A DNA stretch of 64,000 nucleotides from a virus. Shown piece by piece: positions 1,661 to 39,303 of the stretch. The stretch lies in IMG/VR virus record IMGVR_UViG_3300036770_006330. One strand, given 5' to 3'. Below the pieces are notes generated by a model. It did no database searches and had not been told where the DNA came from. It saw only the letters and a list, made by a program, of their open reading frames with translations. Within the stretch, counting starts at the first letter, position 1, and each line of letters opens with the position of its first letter. The position numbers and the translations under genes are program-made.

Positions 1661-4600
1661 AAACCTCGACAGTTATCAGAGATAAGATTTCTGGTGCGCC
1701 GTTCGCCGTCATCGTAGGACCGGCGCAACCCCTGCGCGTCTTCGGTGCGAGCGGACAGGGTAGGGCATGGGCCGAATGGGCGGTTAAACAGCCATCGATG
1801 GACGCATTGCTTTCTTCTCTTGATGCGTCTCTTGTACACGAAAAAAACGTGCAGCTCACAACTGAGTTTTTGGACTCTATCGCCGACTCGTTTGACCAAC
1901 AGGTAATAAATGACCTGCGTGCCTTGGCGTCCCAAAAAGCCCTCGTATTGATAATGCAGACAAAATCCGACATTGGTCCGGAGCACAATGAGTATGAGCA
2001 GATGAACGAAACTTCTGAGCTCGAAGAAATCGACAACTGGCCAATTACTGATGCCGCATTGGCAACAATAGATGTTGCCTATAAGCAAATCGCAATCAAT
2101 TATAAAGCGCGGGCATTTGAGCTTGACACAAAACGAGCTGGCATCATGCTCCAGGTCAAAGGTGTTCGCGCTCTCTGGGACCCAAACATGCCCGGTGGTG
2201 GAGGTTGGAGATGCCCGGACGATACGCCGAATGGTGGACAATTCACCAACAGGCTTGGTCGCGGATGCACATTTGGAATGTTGAGGAGAATAGGAAGAAG
2301 TCTCGTTGCGGCATCATTGCGAGATATTTCAAAGGCAGTAGATGATGCGGCAAACATAGATTTGCCAACAGTGAACCGGGCTGGAAGGGCATTAACTTCC
2401 GCCGCTGACGCAAGAGATGCCAGACTGCAAAATAAGTTTAAAAACAGGGCACAACGAAGAGCACGAAAACTTGCTAAAGCAAAAGCACAAGAGCAGTTGA
2501 AACAAGGCGCAATTACGTGGAGACAAGCATATGAAAGTCTCGATAAGGATAGGACGCGCAGAGGAAGAGCTCGAATCGCAACTGCATTGGTCGCAAAGCG
2601 CATGGCAGACGATGCCGCAACTAGAGCATTTAATTCAGAGACAAGAAGGCAGCGGAGACGAGCTGGAAGAGGTGTTGAAAAAACACCGCCCCCATCACCT
2701 GGCGGCGCAGTCTCAACACAGACTGTGGTCCCAGGTCAACAGGGGGGACCGTCAAGAAGAGAAATACTCGCGGAACGGTTGAGGCGCACCGCTCAAAACA
2801 TAGTAGGTGAAGACCAGCAGCAGACACGCAGAATGTCTCGACGCGCTAGACGCGTCGCGCAACAACCCCAAGCTGAAGAACCTGTCGATACTGAATATAC
2901 GCCCCCGCAGTCGCCGGCTAGAGGTGTGCGCGGACAGACGCCATCACCTGCACCAATCGCCACGCGTTTTGCTCGTGGCGAAAATGAATCGCGCATGGGG
3001 GAGATACGAGCAATTCGCAGAGAACTAAGAGGGAGAACACCACGTAGCACAAGTCCATTGCGAGAGCGAATCGCAATGCGCCAAAGACGTCGAGCCGCAA
3101 GACTGCGCGGAGAGGCACCCGGGTTGGAGGACTATCCAGATTTTGAGGCAAGCCGTATTGAATTGCCAGACTTAAAAGGTGGACCACTAGAAGCAAACGC
3201 CTTCATGGGCAGGGGCCAGGATGCAAAACGGGTCGACCCAATTTTGCGAGACATTCCATCGCCTCCGGGGAGAGGAGAGGGCAGCTTTATACCTATAGGC
3301 GATACACCCGCTCGAGAAGAGTACGTGGAAAGAAGGCAAGAATGGCTCACTGACGAGAACCTAATTGGCCTAAACAATTTGCAGAAATTTTTTGAACATC
3401 GAGCTAGTCATGGAAAAATTCGAGAAGCTCGCTCGGACGACAGCACTAATGCAGAGCAAGTGGAAGATGCTCTCATCAATGCCGGCGAACTGCTGGACTC
3501 TTTCGATGCCAGCTCGCAAAATGAACTAAAAGAAATATACGAGAACTGGCAGCGCGAATTCAATGACCCAAACCTCCCTTCTCCGGAGGGATATGTATCC
3601 AATCTTGGGCGCACCATTTCCAGACAGGACGACGTTAATGGAATAAGCAGAACTGTTTTGTACGCTGCCGATGTTCCAGGAAATCCGATTGTCTACATAG
3701 AAGATTCAGATAAAGGAATAGCCCACCTGCTGGACACAAAGGGCCGTCACGTTCTTTCAATGTTCACCGACGATAACGGAGAGGTGCGTTTCATGTCTGG
3801 CTCTGCAGCAGCGGAGACTATCGCTAGACGTGGAATGCGTAGACCGATTCGTGAACGAATAATGGAAAGACTCAACAGAAGAGATTCCGACGGGTCGCCA
3901 GCGCAACAGATGTCATTGCGTGCTAGAAGAATTGCGGTTGAGCGTAGCAAAACTCGCTCTGGCCTAAGTTTTGGCAAGACAACAAGTGGCGATGTGTACC
4001 TCCCAGGCGACCATCTACTCGCCGAGCAGGACAGACTAATAATCGAAGCCAACATTCAGGACCAATTGGCACGATATAACGAATCATTCAGGCACAGACT
4101 GAATATTGCCGACCCGGACGAACCGCTATCGGAAGATGGAATACTTTCGTATATCGACGAACTAGCAAAAACTGATGCCAGACATGCCGGAATAATAAAA
4201 ACACGCCTGCACGATTTCCTGGTGCTAACAGAAATTGAAGAGACCGGAGATTTAAATTTCATTAATAATCTCAAGCCGTCAGCTAGGTCTCGAATTCTTG
4301 AGGGAACGTCCAGCTATACGAGGGGGAAGAGAAGCGGTAGGCAGAAATTTACCCCATACAGGCCTTCAGGCGCGCGCAATATAAATCCAGAGGATATAAC
4401 GCCGCCAATACTGGTAAATGCCCCAGTGAATACCATGGCGCCAATAAATGTACCAAGCACCGGAATTCCACTTACGCCAGGTCTTGGCAATCCTTCCCTT
4501 GGTATCAATTACGACCCTTCAAGTGGCCTATACATTGATTCAGCTACTGGATTGTTTGTTGAGGACCTAACCGGCCTTCCAATTGACCGCACCAGTGTGT

Positions 4601-7473: not shown

Positions 7474-9522
7474 ATGGAACTTGAGCAGCGTCCGGAAATT
7501 GCCAAGCGCAAGAAGAGGAAACGAAGGAAACTTCGCGGAGAAAGCGCTGAGCAGTGGGAGGAGCTTCGCGAAGGTGGCGTCGTTGGGATAGATAGCCTTC
7601 CAGGTGGAGGAATAGTCAGCGCACCAGTAATTTCTGGAAAAGCACTGCCGAGAATAGGCAGAAGATTGTCTGCCATAAAAAGAAGAGCGAAGATTTCCGA
7701 GCGCGACGGCGATGGTGATGGATTTAGAACAAATCCGTTAACAGGTCGCGATGACCTGCCAGTATTGCCAAATGTCCCCGGAATGGATGCAATATCTGGG
7801 GCAATACGAAGCGGAAACAACACTGAATATATCGGGGATGAAGGGCTAATAAAAGCGCAGGCTAGACAGGTTTCTGAATTCGAAAAATGGTCCAAGGGAA
7901 AACAGTGGAATAACTTTCATCGTGAACATTTTGACTGGTGGACCTTCCCAATCGACAAGGGAAGTAGTCATAGCGGGTTTGCTTACGACATCTCCGGAGA
8001 ACCACTGGAGCGCCTAAAACAGAACCCCAAATATCTCTCATCGATTTCACGTGCGGCTGAACTATATAACCGCAGTCTTGGCTGGGACCTAAAAAGTTCC
8101 AGGTGGATTGATTCACCAGATAAAAGTCGTGGTCAAAACGCGTCTCAATCAAACATAAATCAGCAGCGTCTTTTCAAAATTGGTAGGTCTTTACAGATAC
8201 ACGGCCTTGATAATGACTTTAATTCACACCGACAAATGGTTGAATCCCTAAGAAGAGCTGGGATTAGGGTTGGCAATGAGTCATATTGGGACAACCCAAA
8301 TGAGTTTGTCATGCGCTCACGATTCAAAGATGGTGACGGGTCGATTTCCGGAGCAATGTCAGGTATTGGAATTTCTCCAAAAGTGATGAAATTGCAACAA
8401 CATGACCCACGCCGCGACAAAGAATTTGTCGAGCTCCAGAAAGCCCGTGACGCCAGAAATGCATCCAGGGACCCATCTAAGGGTGACCTTACTTTTGACT
8501 GGAAAGATGATAATTCACGAACATCTTTCATACGGCGAATTTGGAAGAAGGCTTGGGAAAAAGGCGATGCAAAATTTAATGGAAAAATTAGCAACGGAGC
8601 CAGGTGGGATACCCAACATGCACACACTGGACTGGCCCCACAAATAGATGAAAATCTAAACTTGGTTGCTGATTTGGGATTGCACTGGGGGGTAGGGGAT
8701 AGAACCTACAGCGGTTTTTTTGACCAATACGGAAGTGTATTTAGGCATTCTCTTTCGCCACAAAATCCAGAAGGTGCAGCTGCCGAACAAGTCAGAGACC
8801 TAAAGGGGTATTTTGCACCAACAATAAATCCAGCCCTATATTGGCAAAGATTTGAATCATGGATTCGAAATCCATTCTCGGTGGTTAGGGACCCAAATAC
8901 TGGTAGAGATGTTGGTGTCCGCAAATACTTCAATAATGACAGAACCCTTCTTGTTCAAGAATTTGACAGAAGAATATCCAAGCTATATGACGCACTGTCT
9001 GAGGCGTCCGGCAAAGACATTGAGCAGCATAAATATATTCCATTGCCAGAATTCGACAATCCCAGACCACGCAGGGACAGTGTTCCGAATTTTATGATTA
9101 ATGACATCAAAAGACAGATGTCTGAAGCCATTGAAGCTATGAGCAAGCATTCAACACTAGAGGGGCTGCGCAAAAGGTTGTTAGACTTTTTCCAAACGCG
9201 AAATCAGGCAGCGTTGGCCGAGTCAATAACACCTGATTGGCTTGAAGATTACCTAAAATCAGACCACAAGAATTGGCTTGCTGAGCAACTGCGTCGCCAC
9301 CCAGACTTTTTGCGCGCAAGTTCACTGGACAGCCTTAGTCACGACAAGCTAAAAGAGTCTTCAGAGATGATGGAACTGGTATTTGATGAGGTAGCGCTTG
9401 CCGGAGGAGACCCAAAAAACATAGACCTAGCTGGCGATTTGGTAAGAAGCGTAATGACGGGTCTTTCGGAGGAACAAATAAAGAAGCTTTACGAAGATGA
9501 ACTTCGACGCAATAGAAATTAA
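7474..9522 (+). CDS. 682-aa modular protein with an OGFr_N/DUF1810-like domain
   Basis: Basic leader, DGDGDG motif, then HFDWWTFPID ... NQQRLFKIGRSLQIHG (compare OGFr_N HxYIQWLFP ... HNxLRITRILKSL). The domain is flanked by ISGAI (7792) and ISGAM (8344). Confidence 0.7.
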   Translation: MELEQRPEIAKRKKRKRRKLRGESAEQWEELREGGVVGIDSLPGGGIVSAPVISGKALPRIGRRLSAIKRRAKISERDGDGDGFRTNPLTGRDDLPVLPNVPGMDAISGAIRSGNNTEYIGDEGLIKAQARQVSEFEKWSKGKQWNNFHREHFDWWTFPIDKGSSHSGFAYDISGEPLERLKQNPKYLSSISRAAELYNRSLGWDLKSSRWIDSPDKSRGQNASQSNINQQRLFKIGRSLQIHGLDNDFNSHRQMVESLRRAGIRVGNESYWDNPNEFVMRSRFKDGDGSISGAMSGIGISPKVMKLQQHDPRRDKEFVELQKARDARNASRDPSKGDLTFDWKDDNSRTSFIRRIWKKAWEKGDAKFNGKISNGARWDTQHAHTGLAPQIDENLNLVADLGLHWGVGDRTYSGFFDQYGSVFRHSLSPQNPEGAAAEQVRDLKGYFAPTINPALYWQRFESWIRNPFSVVRDPNTGRDVGVRKYFNNDRTLLVQEFDRRISKLYDALSEASGKDIEQHKYIPLPEFDNPRPRRDSVPNFMINDIKRQMSEAIEAMSKHSTLEGLRKRLLDFFQTRNQAALAESITPDWLEDYLKSDHKNWLAEQLRRHPDFLRASSLDSLSHDKLKESSEMMELVFDEVALAGGDPKNIDLAGDLVRSVMTGLSEEQIKKLYEDELRRNRN

Positions 9523-9613
9523 TTACTTGACATGTATCTCGGCATAATCCACAAATTTGAAGTACTATTATTGAAGCACGGTTGGGGCAAAGCAAACTGC
9601 TGTTCCACATATT

Positions 9614-12600
9614 TTGTCGAAGAGTGCCATGGGTGAACTAAACAAAGAAACATCTGAACAGTCAAAAGCAATGCTCGGTGCGCCGCGTTTGCTGCGCCCT
9701 TCAGACCCAGACGTTTACGATAATCCGGAGTCAGCAAGGGTTAGGGCAAGACAAATCGGATGCATTGGAATACGTCGCTACAATAATCGCAATGGCGGTG
9801 TGTCGTGGATGCCATGCACAAATGAATCTGACTACAGACGCGTATCTGGTTTTGGACACTCCGGCAGAAGATTTAGGAGACAGCAACTAGAACGCGAAGT
9901 GCGAGAAATAATTGGGAGACGCGGCTCTCGCTCATTCTCGAAAAAGAGTGCAAATTATACAAAACCAGAACTCCGAGAACGTCTCAAGCAAAGGATAATG
10001 GCTGGCTCAAAGGGTGGAGCGCCAGGGCAGTGGTCGGCACGAAAAGCGCAGCTTTTGGCAAGCGCCTACAGAAAAGCTGGCGGCGGCTATAGGGGCAGAA
10101 AAACATCCAAGCAGCGCTCACTTTCTCGCTGGACAAAACAAAAGTGGCGAACAATTGATGGCAAGCCAGCACGACGCGGCAACGTTGTTCGCCGCTATCT
10201 TCCTGCAAGGGCATGGGGTAAGTTGACACCAGGACAACGACAAGCAACAAACCGCAAGAAAATCCAGGGCAGTAAACGCGGTGAGCAGTTTGTCGCAAAC
10301 ACAGAAGCAGCGAGAAAAGCTAGAAAGCGTTCTGTCGTAAGCAAGAAGCATGCAGAATTTTATGAAGACTTTGAGTTTAAAGCAGTCGGCAAGAAGCTTG
10401 GTCGAGCACTGCCCGGAAAGCTCGGACCAGGAGGTGGTTCTGGTGGCAGAAAAGCCAGACGAGTTGGTGCATCGCTCCGTGGGGCAATGGCGAGATTTGA
10501 CCCGAATGCAGTAGACGCTGACGCAGACAATATCGTACAAGAAGGAACAATTTATGAGCGTCCTGCTCCACCAAGAAGTGGTGCGGTTTCTTCGCTTACA
10601 AACATACGCGCTCCACAGATTCCTGAGCCGGAACGTGCATTTGGCCGTGCTGCACGCTCGAGTGACGGTCGCTTTGCTTCTCCTGCGTCGCGAGCAATTT
10701 CGTCTGGACGCTCTCGGGCTGAACGGGAAATAACTCGCGGTTCTAGAGCAACCCCAAAACCAAGAATTGTTCCAAAGACTCCAACGGCAAGACGTCTTGC
10801 CGAACAGGCAGGACAAACTGCTGTCCCAGCAGCAAGACGCGGTCGTATTACAGGAAGAAGAGACTACGCAGTTCCACAAGTTAGTCGGGATGTAAGAGAC
10901 TCGATAAGAGAACAACGCGCGGATATATATGAGAGATTCGCAACCGGAGATTACACAGTTCAGCAACTCGCTGACCAGTTTGATGTTGTTCGTGATGAAA
11001 TTACTTCATCTATTAGGGCTCATGAGAATTTCCGTAATTCAAATTTGCGAAAATTTAAAAAGGGAAGCCCGAAGCTTTACCAGGCAATTTCTGGATTCGG
11101 AAATTCAAGAGGAAGTTTTGATGAGGCGATAAAAGAAAGAAAGTTTAGTAATTGGGACGGTCTCGTAAGACACATATTCACCGACCCAAAACTCCGCCGC
11201 TCCGGAAAACACACAGATATGCAGAACGACCTTTTTAAGGCGTTCCCGGATGGCAAAAACCCAGACAAAGATTCAAACATTGAACTTGGATACCTGCCAA
11301 GCGTTCGCGGCGAATCACGCCCGCCAGTGAAGGCTTTCAATGACCGCAGAAGCCCAACTCCAGAATTTAGACCGCTTTCACTTTCTCCAAGACAGCCAGG
11401 ACGACTCGGCAGCGCATCCGATATAGCCGAGAGAGCCGGAAGGCGTGCAGCATTCAGAAGAGACTCATTGATTATTGATGCGATGCGCAGAGGAGACTCA
11501 ATCTCCGGAGCGATGTCTTCCGTGAACATGACTCCAGCGGAAGAGAGAGACTGGAAGCGCAAGGAATGGACCAGACAACAGCTAAAGAATTTTGCCCTGG
11601 ACCCTGATGTGAAAAAGAAATACCCAACCCTTGCAAATCAGCTTGGGGACGGCCCACTCATAGATGCAGTTCTTGGGCTGGACGGACTTGATGATGATTC
11701 GCTTGGGAATCTTTGGGACGCTACTGTTACGGAAATTTCAGCAACTCCAGGCTCAAAAGTTCCTGCATATCAGGCCAGACAAGCTCCTCTTTCCCCAAGG
11801 GAACTAGCAGCTGCATCAACAGTTAAACGCCCACTTGTTTCTGCATTCCTCGATGAATATAAGAAGAGTGCCCCAGGCGGCCAATTAGCCAAACTCGATG
11901 CATCGAGAATGACCGACGAAGACGTAGAGTCCTTCTACAACACATTTATTCTTCCGGAATTGATTAATAATGGAGCTCCATCCCAGCAAGACATAGAAGC
12001 GGCAGCAGCACTACCAGCTGTTCGTAGTCGACTTAATGAAGCTGAACAAATTCTTCTGAATGTTCCACTTGAGCTAAGGACCCTCGACCTTCGCATGAAG
12101 TTGGCGAGAAAGGCTCTCGAGTCTACGAACATAGACCCAGACAGCCCTGAATTTGAAGACGCTCTTCAAAAGCTGATTAATGACCAACTCGACCTTGAAG
12201 CTGTCCAATTTGCCGAAGACGTTGAGAAGTGGCTGCGCGGTGGATTCGATAGGCCGCGCCGTATACCAATTAATCCGATGACTGGACAAGAATACACGGA
12301 TGGCGAACTTGAAGCTCAAATCAATATAGTTAGGGACAATATTGAGCGACTTTCTGCCGACTTAGACAAAATGCAAATGGAAGAGCTTCAGCACCTTGGA
12401 TTTATTAGGAACATACTTTTCGACGCACTTATGCTTGAAGAGTTTTTTGCTGAAGGAGATGCACGAAATCTGGATAAACCAGTCGACCCACTAACTGGTC
12501 GAGAACTATCAATGCGTGAATACCTTGAATCTGCCTCATATCAATTAAATCAAGTCCCAATTAACCCGCTTACTGGCAAAAAATATACCCTACAAGAAAT

Positions 12601-15600
12601 GCGAGACCAAATTGCAAACCTCGATAATAGACTTGAAACAATCCGCACCGGAATGGGCATTTCAAAGCTAAACCAGATTGGCGGACAGCAGCAATTGCTT
12701 GGCGCACTCATGAAGGCAGCAGCGCAATTAGAACCTGACGATTCTGACATGCCAGACGATATTGATATTCCAGGCGATGGCGACGTAGATGTAATGGAAA
12801 TAGAAGACAAGCCAGATGCAGATGCAATCAACGAAATGCTTGATGCGTTCAAGGATTTTCTTGGCGATGCTGGAGATACAACTGTATCGATACGTTCTGA
12901 AGACATAATAAGAGCAAGACAACTAAATCGTCAACTTGAATCCATGCCAGACCCTCGTTCGACGGTCCCAGATACCGACGACTTCTGGAATGGCCTGAGG
13001 GACCAGGATGGGAATCCATTACCAGACTATGACGGAACAGCAAGTCACCCATTAAATTTTGGCCCAGATGGACAACCACTCAAGGTTGATGACCCAGATT
13101 TCATGCTTGCCGATTCCCTGTATCGCGAACACCTTGACCCAAACAACTATGAACTTCAGGAATGGATAAGCATTGATAATCCCCATCTTGGCGGAAGATA
13201 CACGGCGCCACCGAAAGAGCTGGTTAGCCGGTTCTACCAGGGCGACGCAGACTCAAAAGACCCAGAACAAATTGACAAACGAATCAGCTGGGACAGATTA
13301 ATTGGCTATATCCAAAGAACTGCACCCAATCTTTTCCGTCGCAACAAGAAGGGTGAACTTGTTGGAGACATGAATGAGTTGACAAGGAACGGAAACTACG
13401 GAGGCGCCAGCTTTAGTAATGCTCAATTCGACCCGAATGTTCCTTCTAGCGGATACCAGTTTGAAGCCCAGCTTGCGGAACTTAGGGATGCAACGATTGC
13501 TGCACAGAATGCTGAATATCTTTCGCAGGATGCGACTAGTGCCACTGCACGAGCACGGCTATGGGACCTTCACACACAGAGTGGCTTTACTCCAGATGAA
13601 ATAGCTTTTGACCTTGAGATAGTGGACCCACAAGTTGTTTCTACTGCGCTAATGATGCACGCTTCAGACAACAATGTCTCTTCATCTCAGCAGCGGCAAT
13701 TCATGAATATTGCGCAACAAGCAGCTGGTCCAAGACGGGCAACATATGACAAGAAGCGAGTTCAGCGCATTATTGATGAGCTTAGGGGCCTTGCCCGACT
13801 CAGTGGCTCAGGAGCAACCGACTCTCGCTCAATGGTTGCAGAAATTGACAGAGCAATAGCAATACAAGAAGACAGGCTTGCCAAGGTTCAAAGAGAGTAC
13901 GACAACTTCCGTGCCGAAACGCGGACACTGCAAAACATGCTGACTGGATTGTTGCTAACCCGCCCAAAGAACAGAAAAATGGTTCGGGATAATGATGGAA
14001 ATATTGTTCAGGATGGCTGGGACGAAACCAAAGAACCTCTAGCCAGATACCTAAATAGAATCCGCCTATGGGACGATGAATATATCGGCTCAACTAACCC
14101 TGTAACTGGAGAGCGTCGCATCGGGATGGTCACCTACCTGGTTAACCGAATGAAAGATATGGCTCGGATGACCGGAGACGATGGCGGAGCCTCAGCAACT
14201 ACGTTCATTGCTCAAGTTGCCCAAAGCAACATCGCAGGCCTGAGACAATTTAGGTCTGAAATTCAAGGTGTTAGCTCGGACGCCCAAAATGTTGGAATTT
14301 CTGGTTTCATGCGTTCCGGAAGCGCAATAAATAGAGCGGAGTTTGCTGCTCGACGCGGAGCGCGAAAAGCAGCATCTGGAAGATTCGACTTTGCAGACCC
14401 GAGAATACTTAAGCGATTTGATAACGCCGGCTACCCAGTGACTAGAAATATGGTTGGCGCTGCATCCGGTTTCAATCCGCAATATTCGAATTTCATTGCG
14501 GATGCAACAAGGGTAAATAATTTTAAATATGCAAATGGACCAGAGTTCAATTATTTAAATCCCAGAGAACAGCAGATAATTCGCGCACTTGATGACATGG
14601 GTGTTTCTGGCCCGGTCAGAAATCCGGCGCCTGGTGTCCGAGATGAAAACATTGGAAGACGCGTAAGAGACGCCATAGGAATGAACAAGAGGCCAATTAA
14701 GCGCTCTGGTCTTGACCTTACTGGTCCGGTAGAACCGAAGCGTAATCTTTTCAACCCGGAAACCTATGGCCGTCAATCGATGCGCAATAGAACAAGTATA
14801 AATATTGCTGGTCGGATGAGTTCGAGCAAGCCAGACATGTTAATGGAAATGGAAGTTGAGCAAGCGCCAAACGGTAAGTGGTATGTAGTAAACAAACATG
14901 GACAGGCGCTCATTGATTCTCCTTTCGATTCGATGTCGAAGGCAAAAGATGCAATGTACTCATTGCGTCAAACCATTCACGAAAAGGGACGAAGAAGGGA
15001 CCTCCCTGGAACCGTAGCCGAATGGGAGGCAACCGTTGCGGGAATGAAGCAGGTTGGATATCGCTCCCTTTCCCGCGAAATGCGAAATGCAATGGATGTC
15101 GCTCCAATTTCCGCAAATGGAGAAAAGAATCGCTTCATTTTTAAGATAGATGCTGGTCCGAAGCCACGAGCTGGCGACTCAGTTATTTTTAGACGCAACC
15201 CATCGACCAACCAACCAGAAGTTCTTTTGATTGGCCGAGCATTTGGCCCACATAGAACCGAAGCTGATGGGACCATGAGTCTTCCTGGTGGCCTGTTTGA
15301 TGCGGAGGCAGGAGACAAAGACCTAATGGACACAGCACTGCGTGAAGCAGTGGAAGAAATAGGACTTGACCAATCACGCCTACTAAAAGTCGAGCGTCTT
15401 GGAATTATTGATGCACCAGATTGGGACCCTCGGTTCTCCAAGGGCGTTGAGGTTGGTGGAATTTTTGTTGAGGTCCCAGGTGACTGGGAACCAACGGCTG
15501 GCGACGATGCTCTTTCAGCAAGATTTGTTCCATTATCAGATATTGCCAGTGGCGAGGTTCCACTCGGTTTCGGACATGCAGCATGGCTCGAGGCGGCATT

Positions 15601-18600
15601 TGGAGGCTCCGAAGACGAAGATATCGCCAAGCACACAACCGGAATAGCCCTTGCAAACAGGCTCTCCAGAGAGAGACAGCAAAGAATAATTGCGTCCGTT
15701 AACGAGGGTAGAAAGATTTGGAATAGGGATACACAAAAGCAAGCAATTACGCTATTCGACCAAGACAACCCAGAGCTTGGTTTATTCCCGGACGAAATGC
15801 CAGAACCAACCTGGGGATGGAGACCGACAGGCCCAGAGGCAGAAGCCAGAGTTGCCGAAGTGAGAAAACGAGTTCTCGCACAAGCCAAAGCAGAACTGGC
15901 AAAGCGAAATCCTCCAAAGGGTGGATTAGGAAGAATTTCTGGTTCGATGAAAGCCAGGGCATTAGAAGTTGATACACCGGATTTTGCCTACAGAATTTCT
16001 CCAGACGCCCGTGAGCGAATCGAGACAGATGTCATGTCGCTCAGACGAAAGGGCATGTCCGCTCGCTCAATCGCTGAAACTCTCAGCAATGTGTACTCGA
16101 TTGATGACTCAATGATTGTAGATGGCCTTGCAATTTCCCCGACAGACTCCCTGGTGAATGGCGTTATACGTAGTGCCAAAGACTCTGGCGTCAACCTGCC
16201 TGAAGCGAAAGATACATTTGATAGGCGGAACTTTGACCTCACGAGCGACGCAGCTCAGATGGCAATCAGCGGAATGGACCGTTCATCAATTGCCTCATAC
16301 CTAGATACATCTGACGCTAGGGCTTCGAGAATCCTAAATTCTCTTGGATTTGATGTTATGCCAGGAGATGGTTCACCTACCTCAATAGAGTCGAGCAGAC
16401 AAAAATTTGCAGACCTGCCTATCAGTAAGCAGCTATACATCGATTCCACACACCGAAGAATGACTTTATCTGAGCTCTCAAAGAAATACAAACTTCCAGA
16501 GTCGAGAATCAGGGAGTCAATTGAACAATACAGAACAATCGCTGAAAACGACTCGGACATGATTTCTAGCAAATACCGCTCCCTCATGAGAGACGGCGGC
16601 GAATCGGTTCTTACACCAGAAGAGATGAATCACGTACGCATGAGGCTTGACGGAATGTCATATTCCGAAATATCCTCAGCAATGGGCATTCCAGAAGGTG
16701 TCTCACGCAGACGCGAAGCATCTAGCCTTGCAAAGTTGCGTGCAATTGATAATGACGGATTCTATGAGGTTGAAAAAGAAAAAACCATTCAAAGACTTCG
16801 CTCGCTACCAGTAGCAGAGTACATGGATGAGCGTGCGCTTTCTTTTGCTGCAGCAGCTGGTTCCACCCCTCCGCCGGATGACCCGGATGACCCAAATAAA
16901 ATTACTCAAGCAGAAATAAGCAAACTTCAGAAGAAGTTTGCTTCCGCTCGCGACATGCGCGATTTCAGGAGTTCAGCAAAAGACGCATACATGCGTAATC
17001 AGTATCTTGGGCAAAGCGTAGAAGAAATTGCTGATATGCAGAATAAGTCGCCTCGCGATGTGCAGCAAGCAATACGCGCCTACGATAAAGCAGTACAAGA
17101 ATCGGACACATTGAGAGACAGAGCATTGAGGAGAGCGCTTGCATCTGCAGCTGATTCATTGTTCACTGAAAACGAACTGGCATTCATCAATATCAGAAAT
17201 GATGGTGCCTCGCTTGATGACGTAGCTAGATACTTTGGAACAGATAAAGCTTCGGTGAGAGCAAGGCAGATGATGCTCATGTCTCGCCTCAACATGAATA
17301 ACGGACTGGGTAGTTCAATTGACTCGGTTTTGGATGCAGACTCAAGAGACCTATACAATGAGCTTGGCGTGCCAACTAGCGCCAGTCGTGAACAGCTAGA
17401 AGACGCGATGCACGATGTTATTAAGACACACTTTGATAGGGCGCTACGCAAGGATAGAGATTCAAGAGAGATAATGCGCAAGGCGTCGGAGGCCTACGCA
17501 ATCCTGTCGAATGAAAATCTCAGAAATCTTTACGACAATAACGAGTTGTCGCCATCGAATGCCAAATCGTTCTGGGAAAACTACGACGATTTCACCAGCT
17601 ATGTTGACCCGTCAACTGGGCAAAGAAGACACCGGTCATTTGGCTATGCAATGAATGATGAACCATTCAAGTCTCGTGATGCATTTAGACTACCACATGA
17701 TACTGGCTCTGACGTAATCTCCGACGACATTGATGACGGTTTCCTTGGATTTACTCTAAATGATAATGTTTCTGATTCTTCAATAAGCGACATGATGTAT
17801 AGGAAGCCAATTCCTGGAACAAAAGAATGGCGTGATAAGAAACGCGATGCGCAAATTGCAATAAGTTCTGGCGACCCAAGATATATGTTTGACCAAGATG
17901 GTTTTATTGCTGGCAAGAAAATGTCTTTCGACCCACGATACGACGACCCAATGTCTCCCGACTACATCGGGGATAGGTTTGGTGGTCCAGCCAAGGGCGT
18001 GAGTCCATTCCAGAACATGGATTTTAAGCCGAAAAAAAAAATAAATAATTCGATATCTGGGAAGATGTCATCCAAATGGGATGACACTTACGAAAAATCC
18101 ATTGGAGTGAATCTTCCAAAAGCAGAATCTATCGATAACGCGGACACAACAAACATATCCAGTTTTTCTAAGTTTGCAAGCCCTGCGAAAAATGAGTCAT
18201 TCTTCGAAATGACTTCCACTTTTGGTGGCAAAACGCCAGTCAGGGAGAGCCGTTTCTGGGGTCTATATTTCCCTATCGCCGAGGCAATTAACAATTCTGT
18301 GACAAAGCGTAAGCGCAAAAAGGGTGAGAGAAAAGTATTTGTCAGTGTTGGCGGTGCCCCAGGCTCTGGAAAGACTTCAATGAGAACTGATGGGACTGGA
18401 GGCATCCCGTCTGTTAGCGACGCAGTTCATGTTGATGCCGACAAAATAAAACTCCTTATACCTGAAGCTCGCGCCATGCACGATGCTGGAAACCCAAATT
18501 GGGGAGATTCGGTTCACGAAGAATCGCGTCTAATTGCAGACCTCACATTGCGCATGGGCCTAGAGCAAGACCACGATATTGTCTACGATTCAACTGGTCA

Positions 18601-25942: not shown

Positions 25943-25956
25943 ATTTGCTCCTTTTG

Positions 25957-26028
25957 TGGGCGCTGAGGGTCTCGAACCCCCGACCTACTCGGTGTAAACG
26001 AGGTGCTCTACCACTGAGCTAAGCGCCC
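25957..26028 (-). tRNA. tRNA-Val(TAC)
   Basis: GGGCGCTTAGCTCAGTGGTAGAGCACCTCGTTTACACCGAGTAGGTCGGGGGTTCGAGACCCTCAGCGCCCA forms a cloverleaf. Confidence 0.92.
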
Positions 26029-39217: not shown

Positions 39218-39290
39218 GGGCTAGTAGCTCAGTGGTTAGAGCAGCACTCTTATAAAGTGTTGGTCGCGGGTTCAATTCCCGTCTAGCCCA
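39218..39290 (+). tRNA. tRNA-Ile(TAT)
   Basis: GGGCTAGTAGCTCAGTGGTTAGAGCAGCACTCTTATAAAGTGTTGGTCGCGGGTTCAATTCCCGTCTAGCCCA; anticodon loop CT-TAT-AA. Confidence 0.9.
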
Positions 39291-39303
39291 CAAGGAGAAG
39301 AAA

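Follow-up and report, generated by a model that had tools for sequence, protein, structure and literature searches.

A repeated Ile-Ser-Gly-x-Met tag at the module boundaries of a giant multidomain protein of an uncultured tailed phage

Tagged proteins at the locus

The 64,000-nucleotide stretch analysed here, IMG/VR record IMGVR_UViG_3300036770_006330 (the window in what follows), comes from an uncultured tailed phage and encodes, in its head gene module with the major capsid gene directly downstream, a giant protein of 3745 amino acids (aa). This protein combines unrelated domains in a single open reading frame (ORF), with NUDIX, Sigma70_r4/helix-turn-helix (HTH), DnaJ and Zeta_toxin matches in Pfam and an ADP-ribosyltransferase-like (ART-like) match in PHROG, and nearly every boundary between its modules is marked by the short tag Ile-Ser-Gly-x-Met. 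The first-pass annotation, made by a model from the letters of the window, had proposed that this protein and its 682-aa neighbour are built like polyproteins with [IV][SA]GxM motifs between their domains. All eight strict copies that it listed in the giant protein are present at the positions it gave, as is ISGAM at 8344 in the 682-aa ORF. The features of the two genes and of the capsid gene are listed below; G1, G3 and G4 are relatives described in the next section, and pLDDT is the predicted local distance difference test score of the structure models.

7474-9522, plus strand: 682-aa tagged neighbour, with ISGAM at residue 291 and degenerate ISGAI at residue 107
7792-7806, plus strand: degenerate tag ISGAI (I for M), placed by BLAST coordinates against G3 and G4
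8344-8358, plus strand: tag ISGAM of the 682-aa protein; counterpart ITGAM in G4, degenerate VVGRM in G1
9614-20851, plus strand: gene of the giant tagged protein, a putative polyprotein; 3745 aa from a TTG, eight tags giving nine modules
11501-11515, plus strand: tag 1, ISGAM, residue 630; closes the N-terminal module
14297-14311, plus strand: tag 2, ISGFM, residue 1562; in coil with pLDDT<50
14804-14818, plus strand: tag 3, IAGRM, residue 1731; in a long coil with pLDDT<50 shortly before the Nudix-containing fold
14819-15934, plus strand: Nudix-containing module (Pfam NUDIX, residues 1857-1977); tags 3 and 4 bracket a confident fold
15935-15949, plus strand: tag 4, ISGSM, residue 2108; collinear homology with G1 relatives stops here
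15950-18052, plus strand: module of several sigma-70 region 4/HTH units and a J-domain (Pfam DnaJ, residues 2579-2641)
18053-18067, plus strand: tag 5, ISGKM, residue 2814; more than 15 BLAST homology ends, from different relatives, within 12 residues
18068-19573, plus strand: zeta-toxin-like P-loop kinase module (Pfam Zeta_toxin, residues 2895-3066)
19574-19588, plus strand: tag 6, ISGRM, residue 3321; in coil with pLDDT<50
19589-19711, plus strand: 46-residue mini-module KKSPRWSDSEI..., with a tag on each side
19712-19726, plus strand: tag 7, ISGSM, residue 3367; in coil with pLDDT<50
19727-20353, plus strand: ART-like module (phrog_4776, residues 3373-3577)
20354-20368, plus strand: tag 8, VSGRM, residue 3581; at the C-terminal edge of the ART-like fold, pLDDT ~78
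20369-20851, plus strand: last module, 160 aa; 59% identical to the stand-alone 163-aa protein P0009
21186-22544, plus strand: major capsid gene (HK97-like), 452 aa; phrog_10, E=4e-61; ATG after AAGGAG

The giant gene likely starts at the ATG at 9629 (3740 aa) and not at the TTG at 9614, because the public gene call P0154, 99% identical over the compared region, is 3740 aa long.

Against shuffled sequence and against the rest of the window the motif is in strong excess, and the excess is confined to these two proteins. In the giant protein [IV][SA]GxM was observed 8 times with 0.14 expected, and none of 2000 shuffles reached 8; the extended form [IV][SA]GxMS was observed 6 times with 0.01 expected (2000 shuffles). 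A blind word count returned ISG.M as the top gapped 5-mer of the giant protein. The strict tag has one copy in the 682-aa ORF, and a six-frame search of the 64-kb window for the looser pattern [IVL][SAT]GxM found it absent from all other ORFs of at least 100 aa.

Two of the domain labels of the first-pass annotation found no support or weak support. For the stretch between residues 107 and 291 of the 682-aa protein, called OGFr-like, no Pfam family was found at E up to 1; the same stretch recurs in the tagged giants P0011, P0014 and P0019. The ART label has weak support from the fold but none from Pfam, where no match was found. The ART-like alignment retains YRG...SWT...RGExE, and the best rows of a Foldseek comparison with the PDB are ARTs (Vis, Tpt1, Rhs ART toxins and PARP10), none of them better than E=0.045; the model of residues 3300-3745 has no significant match in the PDB. 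The Pfam DnaJ match in the giant protein lies just under Pfam's cut-off. At about residue 2606 (~17420-17440) the J-domain reads HFD where J-domains have HPD, the tripeptide needed for stimulating DnaK, and the G4-type relative P0005 has HPD at the matching place.

The N-terminal module contains DUF5872-like parts and a Cys-containing mini-domain, ARQIGCIGIRR...VSWMPCTNESDY (window 9700-9830, giant residues ~30-75), which has a weak Pfam DUF3721 match. This mini-domain heads giants with differing tags in at least 80 viral contigs (L046-L125) and could serve to target these proteins to the capsid or to anchor them. The 1803-aa protein encoded nearby has a related motif, RCP...FTN...C, at about residues 184-204.

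Conservation, folds and module exchange

Related IMG/VR contigs were retrieved with the 682-aa protein and the N-terminal region of the giant protein as queries. The relatives G1 (G001), G3 (G003) and G4 (G004) are 33-54% identical over the query proteins, and G003 (160 kb) and G004 (169 kb) are complete genomes by CheckV estimate. The tag proved to be conserved, standing at the same junctions in 18 aligned homologues (an alignment of 18 sequences over giant residues 1500-2150, 28-83% identical to the window). At tag 2, G..GFM is invariant in 18 of 18 sequences; at tag 4, G and M are retained in at least 90% of them while the flanks are gap-rich and unalignable. The relatives have 6-10 copies per giant, 6 in a large protein termed protein A (2000-2600 aa) and 1-2 in the 682-like protein; the protease protein has 2 in its C-terminal part in both G1 (ITGKM/VSGRM) and G4 (ISGRM/VTGAM). 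De novo word counts in 17 homologous giants from a collection of 5.8 billion proteins gave [IVL][ST]GxM as the top repeated word, with a flavour specific to each genome: ISG in the window, ITG in G004 and L[ST]G in P0023. The complete genome G003 has 20 sites in five proteins and zero in the remaining ORFs of at least 100 aa. The proteins that share one genome's tag are protein A, the 682-like protein, the giant, the C-terminal part of the protease protein and the tape measure, and the presence of the same tag on several proteins of one genome implies a reader acting in trans.

Alignment also separated true tags from weaker look-alikes listed by the first-pass annotation. ITGRR, ISGFG and VAGMK, as well as an additional candidate, LRGAM, were rejected since relatives do not keep them as tags. 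At IAGKKM (17906) two relatives read VVGKNM and IVGRNM, a G-x-x-M pattern unlike the tag. ISGAI (7792) did match true sites, coinciding by BLAST coordinates with ISGAM in G3 and ITGEM in G4. The linker consensus is [G/S/N]-[G/S]-[I/V]-[S/T]-G-x-M-[S/R/G/A], and a logo of 72 sites reads [G/S/N]-[G/S]-[I/V/L]-[T/S/A]-G-x-M-[S/R/G/A]-[G/S/T]-[G/S].

The tags lie between folds. No tag falls within a Pfam or PHROG envelope (Nudix, sigma4-HTH/J, zeta-kinase or ART-like), in line with the earlier proposal that the motifs bracket the domains. AlphaFold models built from alignments for residues 1500-2150 and 3300-3745 cover six tag sites in all, five of which are in coil with pLDDT<50 and the sixth at a domain edge. 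The three sites in the first model have no secondary structure, and tags 3 and 4 enclose a Nudix-containing fold with pLDDT 80-94; in the second model tags 6 and 7 are in the low-confidence coil. As in protease-punctuated polyproteins, which have a consensus at junctions and in linkers, 8 of 8 junctions of the giant protein are tagged.

Modules are exchanged at the tags, as BLAST ends, permutations and insertions among homologous giants confirm. Modules 1-4 are collinear in all relatives, and content diverges after tag 4. The window has the order zeta kinase, 46-aa peptide, ART-like module, whereas G004 has a 48-aa peptide, the ART-like module and then the zeta kinase, and the BLAST alignments between the two stop precisely on tag residues. 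In G1 a cassette of a 47-aa peptide and the ART-like module lies inside the 682-like protein, between ARGSM, LTGKM and VVGRM, and looks as if it was inserted at a pre-existing tag of that protein. Across 18 relatives, 31 of the 82 internal BLAST homology ends fall at most 15 residues from a tag, where 6.3 would be expected and 2000 runs with randomised breakpoints never gave more than 15; this statistic is inflated, since related BLAST subjects are not independent. The modules are self-contained folds that are found elsewhere as separate genes: most of the 4386 relatives of the ART-like module are stand-alone proteins of 205-260 aa (~225) that match exactly residues ~3371-3581, and both this module and the last one have end-to-end matches to stand-alone proteins.

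Smaller pieces are tagged as well. A 46-48-residue peptide, KKxPRW[ST]DxEI, is tag-flanked and always stands ahead of the ART-like module (L002 ~10910-11050; G4 residues 2861-2908); its role may be that of a pro-peptide, an inhibitor or a targeting element. Protein A and other giants contain similar mini-modules of 36-54 aa with a tag at either end. Module 2 has a hypervariable, acidic and partly low-complexity insert (~12300-12970, residues ~900-1120), which forms a second class of homology breakpoint without a tag.

Gain, loss and permutation of modules at the tags could mean that the tags are recombination signals or scars at the DNA level, driving or recording the shuffling without a role in the protein. 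This is very unlikely given the DNA itself. The nine 15-nucleotide tag copies have a mean of 10.5 of 15 bases in common and differ synonymously, and their 60-nucleotide flanks are 28% identical with no longer repeat around them, which is not enough for homologous recombination. Homologues that are 28-45% identical also keep the amino-acid pattern. The codon differences noted by the first-pass annotation are thus real, and because the DNA copies agree only as far as the codons require, selection is on the peptide. The choice of Ser codon in the tags (all TCN) is not significant, as TCN makes up 77% of the Ser codons of the gene.

An even smaller chance is given to the idea that the Met of the tag is an internal translation start, or the relic of separate genes that fused when their stop codons were lost. 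An ATG is present in each tag of this lineage, often followed by Ser-Ser, the capsid protein starts with Met-Ser-Ser, and the modules do occur elsewhere as separate genes. However, the tag ATGs (ATY-TCN-GGN-NNN) have no Shine-Dalgarno-like purine run upstream, unlike the capsid gene; the I-S-G ahead of the Met is as conserved as the Met; and the RLSSG, GSKSST and SRSxR tags of sister lineages have no Met.

Sister lineages and candidate readers of the tag

From base 2 of the window, the plus-strand ORFs are, in order, one of 552 aa with an open 5' end, then those of 1803, 136 and 682 aa, the giant and the capsid gene, on whose 3' side are tRNAs, ribonucleotide reductase, primase-helicase and further replication genes. 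Three phage tRNA genes (24830-24903, 25956-26028 and 39218-39291) are of Met type (CAT), Val (TAC) and Ile (TAT), the CAT tRNA having 86% identity to tRNAs of phiKZ-like phages. No cultured close relatives were found, as megablast of the window returned tRNA matches only, and in the capsid protein the identity to Gordonia phages reaches 47% at most. In the relatives the giant is located between the gene for an S78 prohead protease and the capsid gene. The gene order in G1 is a portal-MuF fusion, the S78 prohead protease with DUF6321, a 523-aa protein, protein A, three proteins, the 682-like protein, the giant and the capsid gene. G003 has a sheath-tube-chaperone-tape-measure block, which means a contractile tail, and the complete relatives are contractile-tailed phages of ~160 kb.

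In other phages, giants with the ART-like or the N-terminal Cys-containing domain have repeated junction peptides of other kinds. SLSSG has 11 copies in P0007, GSKS[ST]T 15 copies across four adjacent proteins, R[LF]SSG 17 copies in one 4203-aa protein and GMRSR 12 copies in each of two giants of one genome with 3 more in a third protein; further junction peptides are G[AE]EAGM, DSGxM, SSRSK and RxGLAS[ST]. The ART-like domain itself is flanked in other giants by SLSSG, GEAGM, DSGxM or GSKSST. Phages with R[LF]SSG, GMRSR, GSKSST and SRSxR have 10-17 tag copies per protein, and their capsid proteins are 72-81% identical to that of the window. Such similar capsids with such different tags indicate that the tag evolves much faster than the virion core and does so at all sites of a genome together, and this suggests one co-evolving, trans-acting reader per genome. 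At locus L040 the P0007 gene (6961-17856), a 3631-aa polyprotein with 11 LSSG tags, lies among WhiB, AAA_25 helicase, SSB and thioredoxin genes. These are early or replication genes and not a head module, so tagged polyproteins are not confined to virion gene clusters.

The explanation preferred here is that the tags are proteolytic processing sites, a reading that sequence comparison makes slightly more credible than not. The giant and its 682-aa neighbour would be cargo polyproteins punctuated by tags, with flexible linkers joining the modules. The chains would be loaded into the virion as long polypeptides, with the N-terminal Cys-containing domain as a candidate targeting part. Each phage genome would encode one protease that recognises its tag and cuts the loaded chains, either while they are in the capsid or once they have been ejected into the next host, freeing the Nudix, HTH/J, zeta-kinase and ART-like modules and several of unknown fold. 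Reader and tags would co-evolve, which would give each sister lineage its own tag.

A reader acting in trans need not be a protease, and the repeated, lineage-specific linker tags on several virion-module proteins would look the same if the tags stayed uncut. They could be conserved linker sites to which a phage factor binds, for example the portal, the capsid interior or a chaperone for packaging or ejection, or they could be modified on Ser, and the protein would work as one chain. Most tags are Ser-rich, and the virion RNA polymerase of phage N4, a polyvalent protein, is packaged and injected full-length (Iyer et al. 2017, PMC5512222). This reading is nevertheless considered rather improbable. 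Tags stand on both sides of mini-modules of 36-54 residues and exactly where stand-alone homologues start and stop, they bracket protease-like modules, and nine unrelated enzymes in a chain have no evident need to stay linked.

If the tags are cut, the enzymes would rank with a zincin first, then S78, then another or a host enzyme. The first-pass annotation had assigned the cutting to the prohead protease. Peptidase_S78 (phrog_80) is encoded in G1, G3, G4 and five sister lineages, and it is the sole protease found in every tag lineage. An S78 protease of HK97 type would cut the tags inside the procapsid, as gp21 of T4 and gp175 of phiKZ cut internal head proteins. In relatives the S78 gene comes after the portal gene and ahead of the giants and the capsid gene, the protein's own C-terminal extension bears the tags of its lineage in G1 and G4, and G-x-M fits the P3-x-P1 layout of the prohead protease rules of T4 (L/I-x-E) and phiKZ (S/A/G-x-E). 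By these rules the scissile bond could be after the Met rather than between G and xM, where it had been placed before.

In the relatives of the window's lineage the protease protein is 826-896 aa long and does not head the giant chain. In four sister lineages S78 forms the N-terminal region of tagged polyproteins that are 3381-4433 aa long and have 5-17 tags each, which is a further point for S78 as the reader and supports capsid loading of the attached cargo. The S78-headed polyprotein loci are:

L154, 3965-16573
L155, 3723-14705, minus strand
L156
L157

The capsid protein itself has a delta-like N-terminal domain of ~105 residues (in window 21186-21520) that ends in KSIGQM|FVES. Its only G-x-M (KSIGQM|F) is at the end of this domain, so that in this lineage the junction resembles the tag. 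In eight related phages the junction is KSIG[QDE][ME]F, three of them with G-D-E, and it looks like a G-x-E/M prohead-protease site independent of the tags. The junction does not co-vary with the tags, being G-[EQ]-M in RLSSG lineages and G-D-E in three others. The capsid G-Q-M was initially taken as a tag read by S78, and this was dropped because lineages with other tags keep the junction as it is.

The catalytic domain of S78 is also nearly constant, 66-72% identical with long invariant blocks across the ISGxM, RLSSG, GMRSR and GSKSST lineages. Additionally, the tape-measure protein of relatives is tagged, and this protein assembles in the tail and not in the procapsid. In three relatives the protein in the tape-measure position has 3-4 tags where ~0.35 would be expected (P<0.01); three are positionally conserved, and the flanks of the second and third sites are poorly conserved. 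One such gene is:

L024, 6931-11877, minus strand: Gly/Ala-rich ORF of 1648 aa in the tape-measure position, after sheath, tube and chaperone; homologues in G1 and G4

A tagged protein in the tail interior is out of reach for an enzyme enclosed in the procapsid, and the tape-measure tags may mean cutting outside the capsid, possibly after ejection. With a constant catalytic domain and capsid junction next to changing tags, and with a tagged tape measure, cutting by the prohead protease is doubtful.

The most likely reader here is instead a fast-evolving zincin of the neighbouring protein A, as judged from the pattern of sequence divergence. Protein A of G1, G3 and G4 has a zincin HExxH module that is 41-42% identical within the lineage. 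It has a strict tag on both sides in G1 and G3 and on the C-terminal side only in G4. A search for the protein A zincin in the sister lineages detected nothing. Those lineages hold other HExxH families, so the presence or absence of a zincin cannot settle the enzyme. A complex prediction for the G3 zincin with a 40-residue linker bearing a tag scored 0.00; it was run without controls and was counted neither way.

Several points weigh against the processing model and against the choice of the zincin. Cleavage at the tags is a prediction, and a conserved docking motif that stays uncut would give the same comparative pattern. Tag 8 is modelled as a short strand, so that disorder is not clear there, and the breakpoint statistic carries the inflation noted above. 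The window does not include this genome's own protease, protein A or tape measure, and these were read in relatives alone. The giant of the window has no HExxH module. No zincin family is common to all tag lineages, in which several HExxH families are present, and the link between zincin and tag is only a correlation of evolutionary rates. We infer cleavage, enzyme and timing as well as packaging and injection. The whole is proposed tentatively, with somewhat less confidence than processing as such: a group of uncultured phages of ~160 kb may use a punctuation code in which lineage-specific tags of 5-7 residues, read by each lineage's own fast-evolving protease, divide giant virion-loaded chains and the tape measure into separate effectors, possibly not until after ejection.

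Comparison with known systems

It has been known since 2017 that phages carry polyvalent proteins, and how, where and whether they are cut has so far been a matter of general conjecture. A defined tag gives exact cut sites that can be tested cheaply. It also allows thousands of giant phage proteins that lack annotation to be split by a simple rule into modules, many of which have no known function, and offers a natural explanation for the assembly and reshuffling of arsenals of injected effectors. If the model is true, new effector genes could be added simply by insertion between two tags. The change of code between sister lineages with capsids ~75% identical would exemplify protease-substrate co-evolution over dozens of sites at once, and if cleavage follows ejection it would be a new way of timing the activation of effectors.

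RNA virus polyproteins such as those cut by the picornavirus 3C and potyvirus NIa proteases have a short junction consensus in exposed linkers, site rules specific to each lineage and proven cleavage. The giant protein is similar in its consensus at junctions in linkers and in its lineage-specific rules, as if there were one reader per virus. However, RNA virus polyproteins serve the expression of the genome, whereas this is a double-stranded DNA phage with ordinary genes, in which a polyprotein would serve the loading of cargo and cleavage is predicted.

The internal proteins and Alt of T4 with gp21, and the cargo of phiKZ and SPN3US with gp175 and gp245, share with the tagged proteins short repeated motifs, an adjacent prohead protease and a cargo thought to be ejected with the DNA. 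That cargo is mostly single-module and its motif is the cleavage site of the capsid itself. Here many modules are strung together, and the tag tracks neither the capsid junction nor S78 and is also found on the tape measure.

The closest likeness is to the polyvalent proteins of phages and conjugative elements, which are giant multidomain proteins encoded among virion genes, with ART, Nudix-type, kinase, nuclease and DNA-binding modules and zincin-like peptidases nearby (PMC5512222). Packaging, injection and proteolytic processing have been predicted for them, as they are predicted here from the genes, and the processing was assigned to zincin-like metallopeptidases acting before packaging, in the head or after injection (Iyer et al. 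2017, PMC5512222). Polyvalent proteins often carry a zincin-like metallopeptidase or another peptidase domain of their own, whereas in this phage group the zincin is in protein A of the relatives. That study defines the class by domain content and treats processing in general terms, and the word 'linker' does not appear in its main text. The giant of the window differs in having a defined junction peptide that is common to several proteins and differs between sister lineages; a limited search of the literature found no described junction tag in phage polyvalent proteins. The polyvalent class and its predicted processing are thus known, and what appears new, within that limited search, is a defined, lineage-specific junction code common to several virion proteins.

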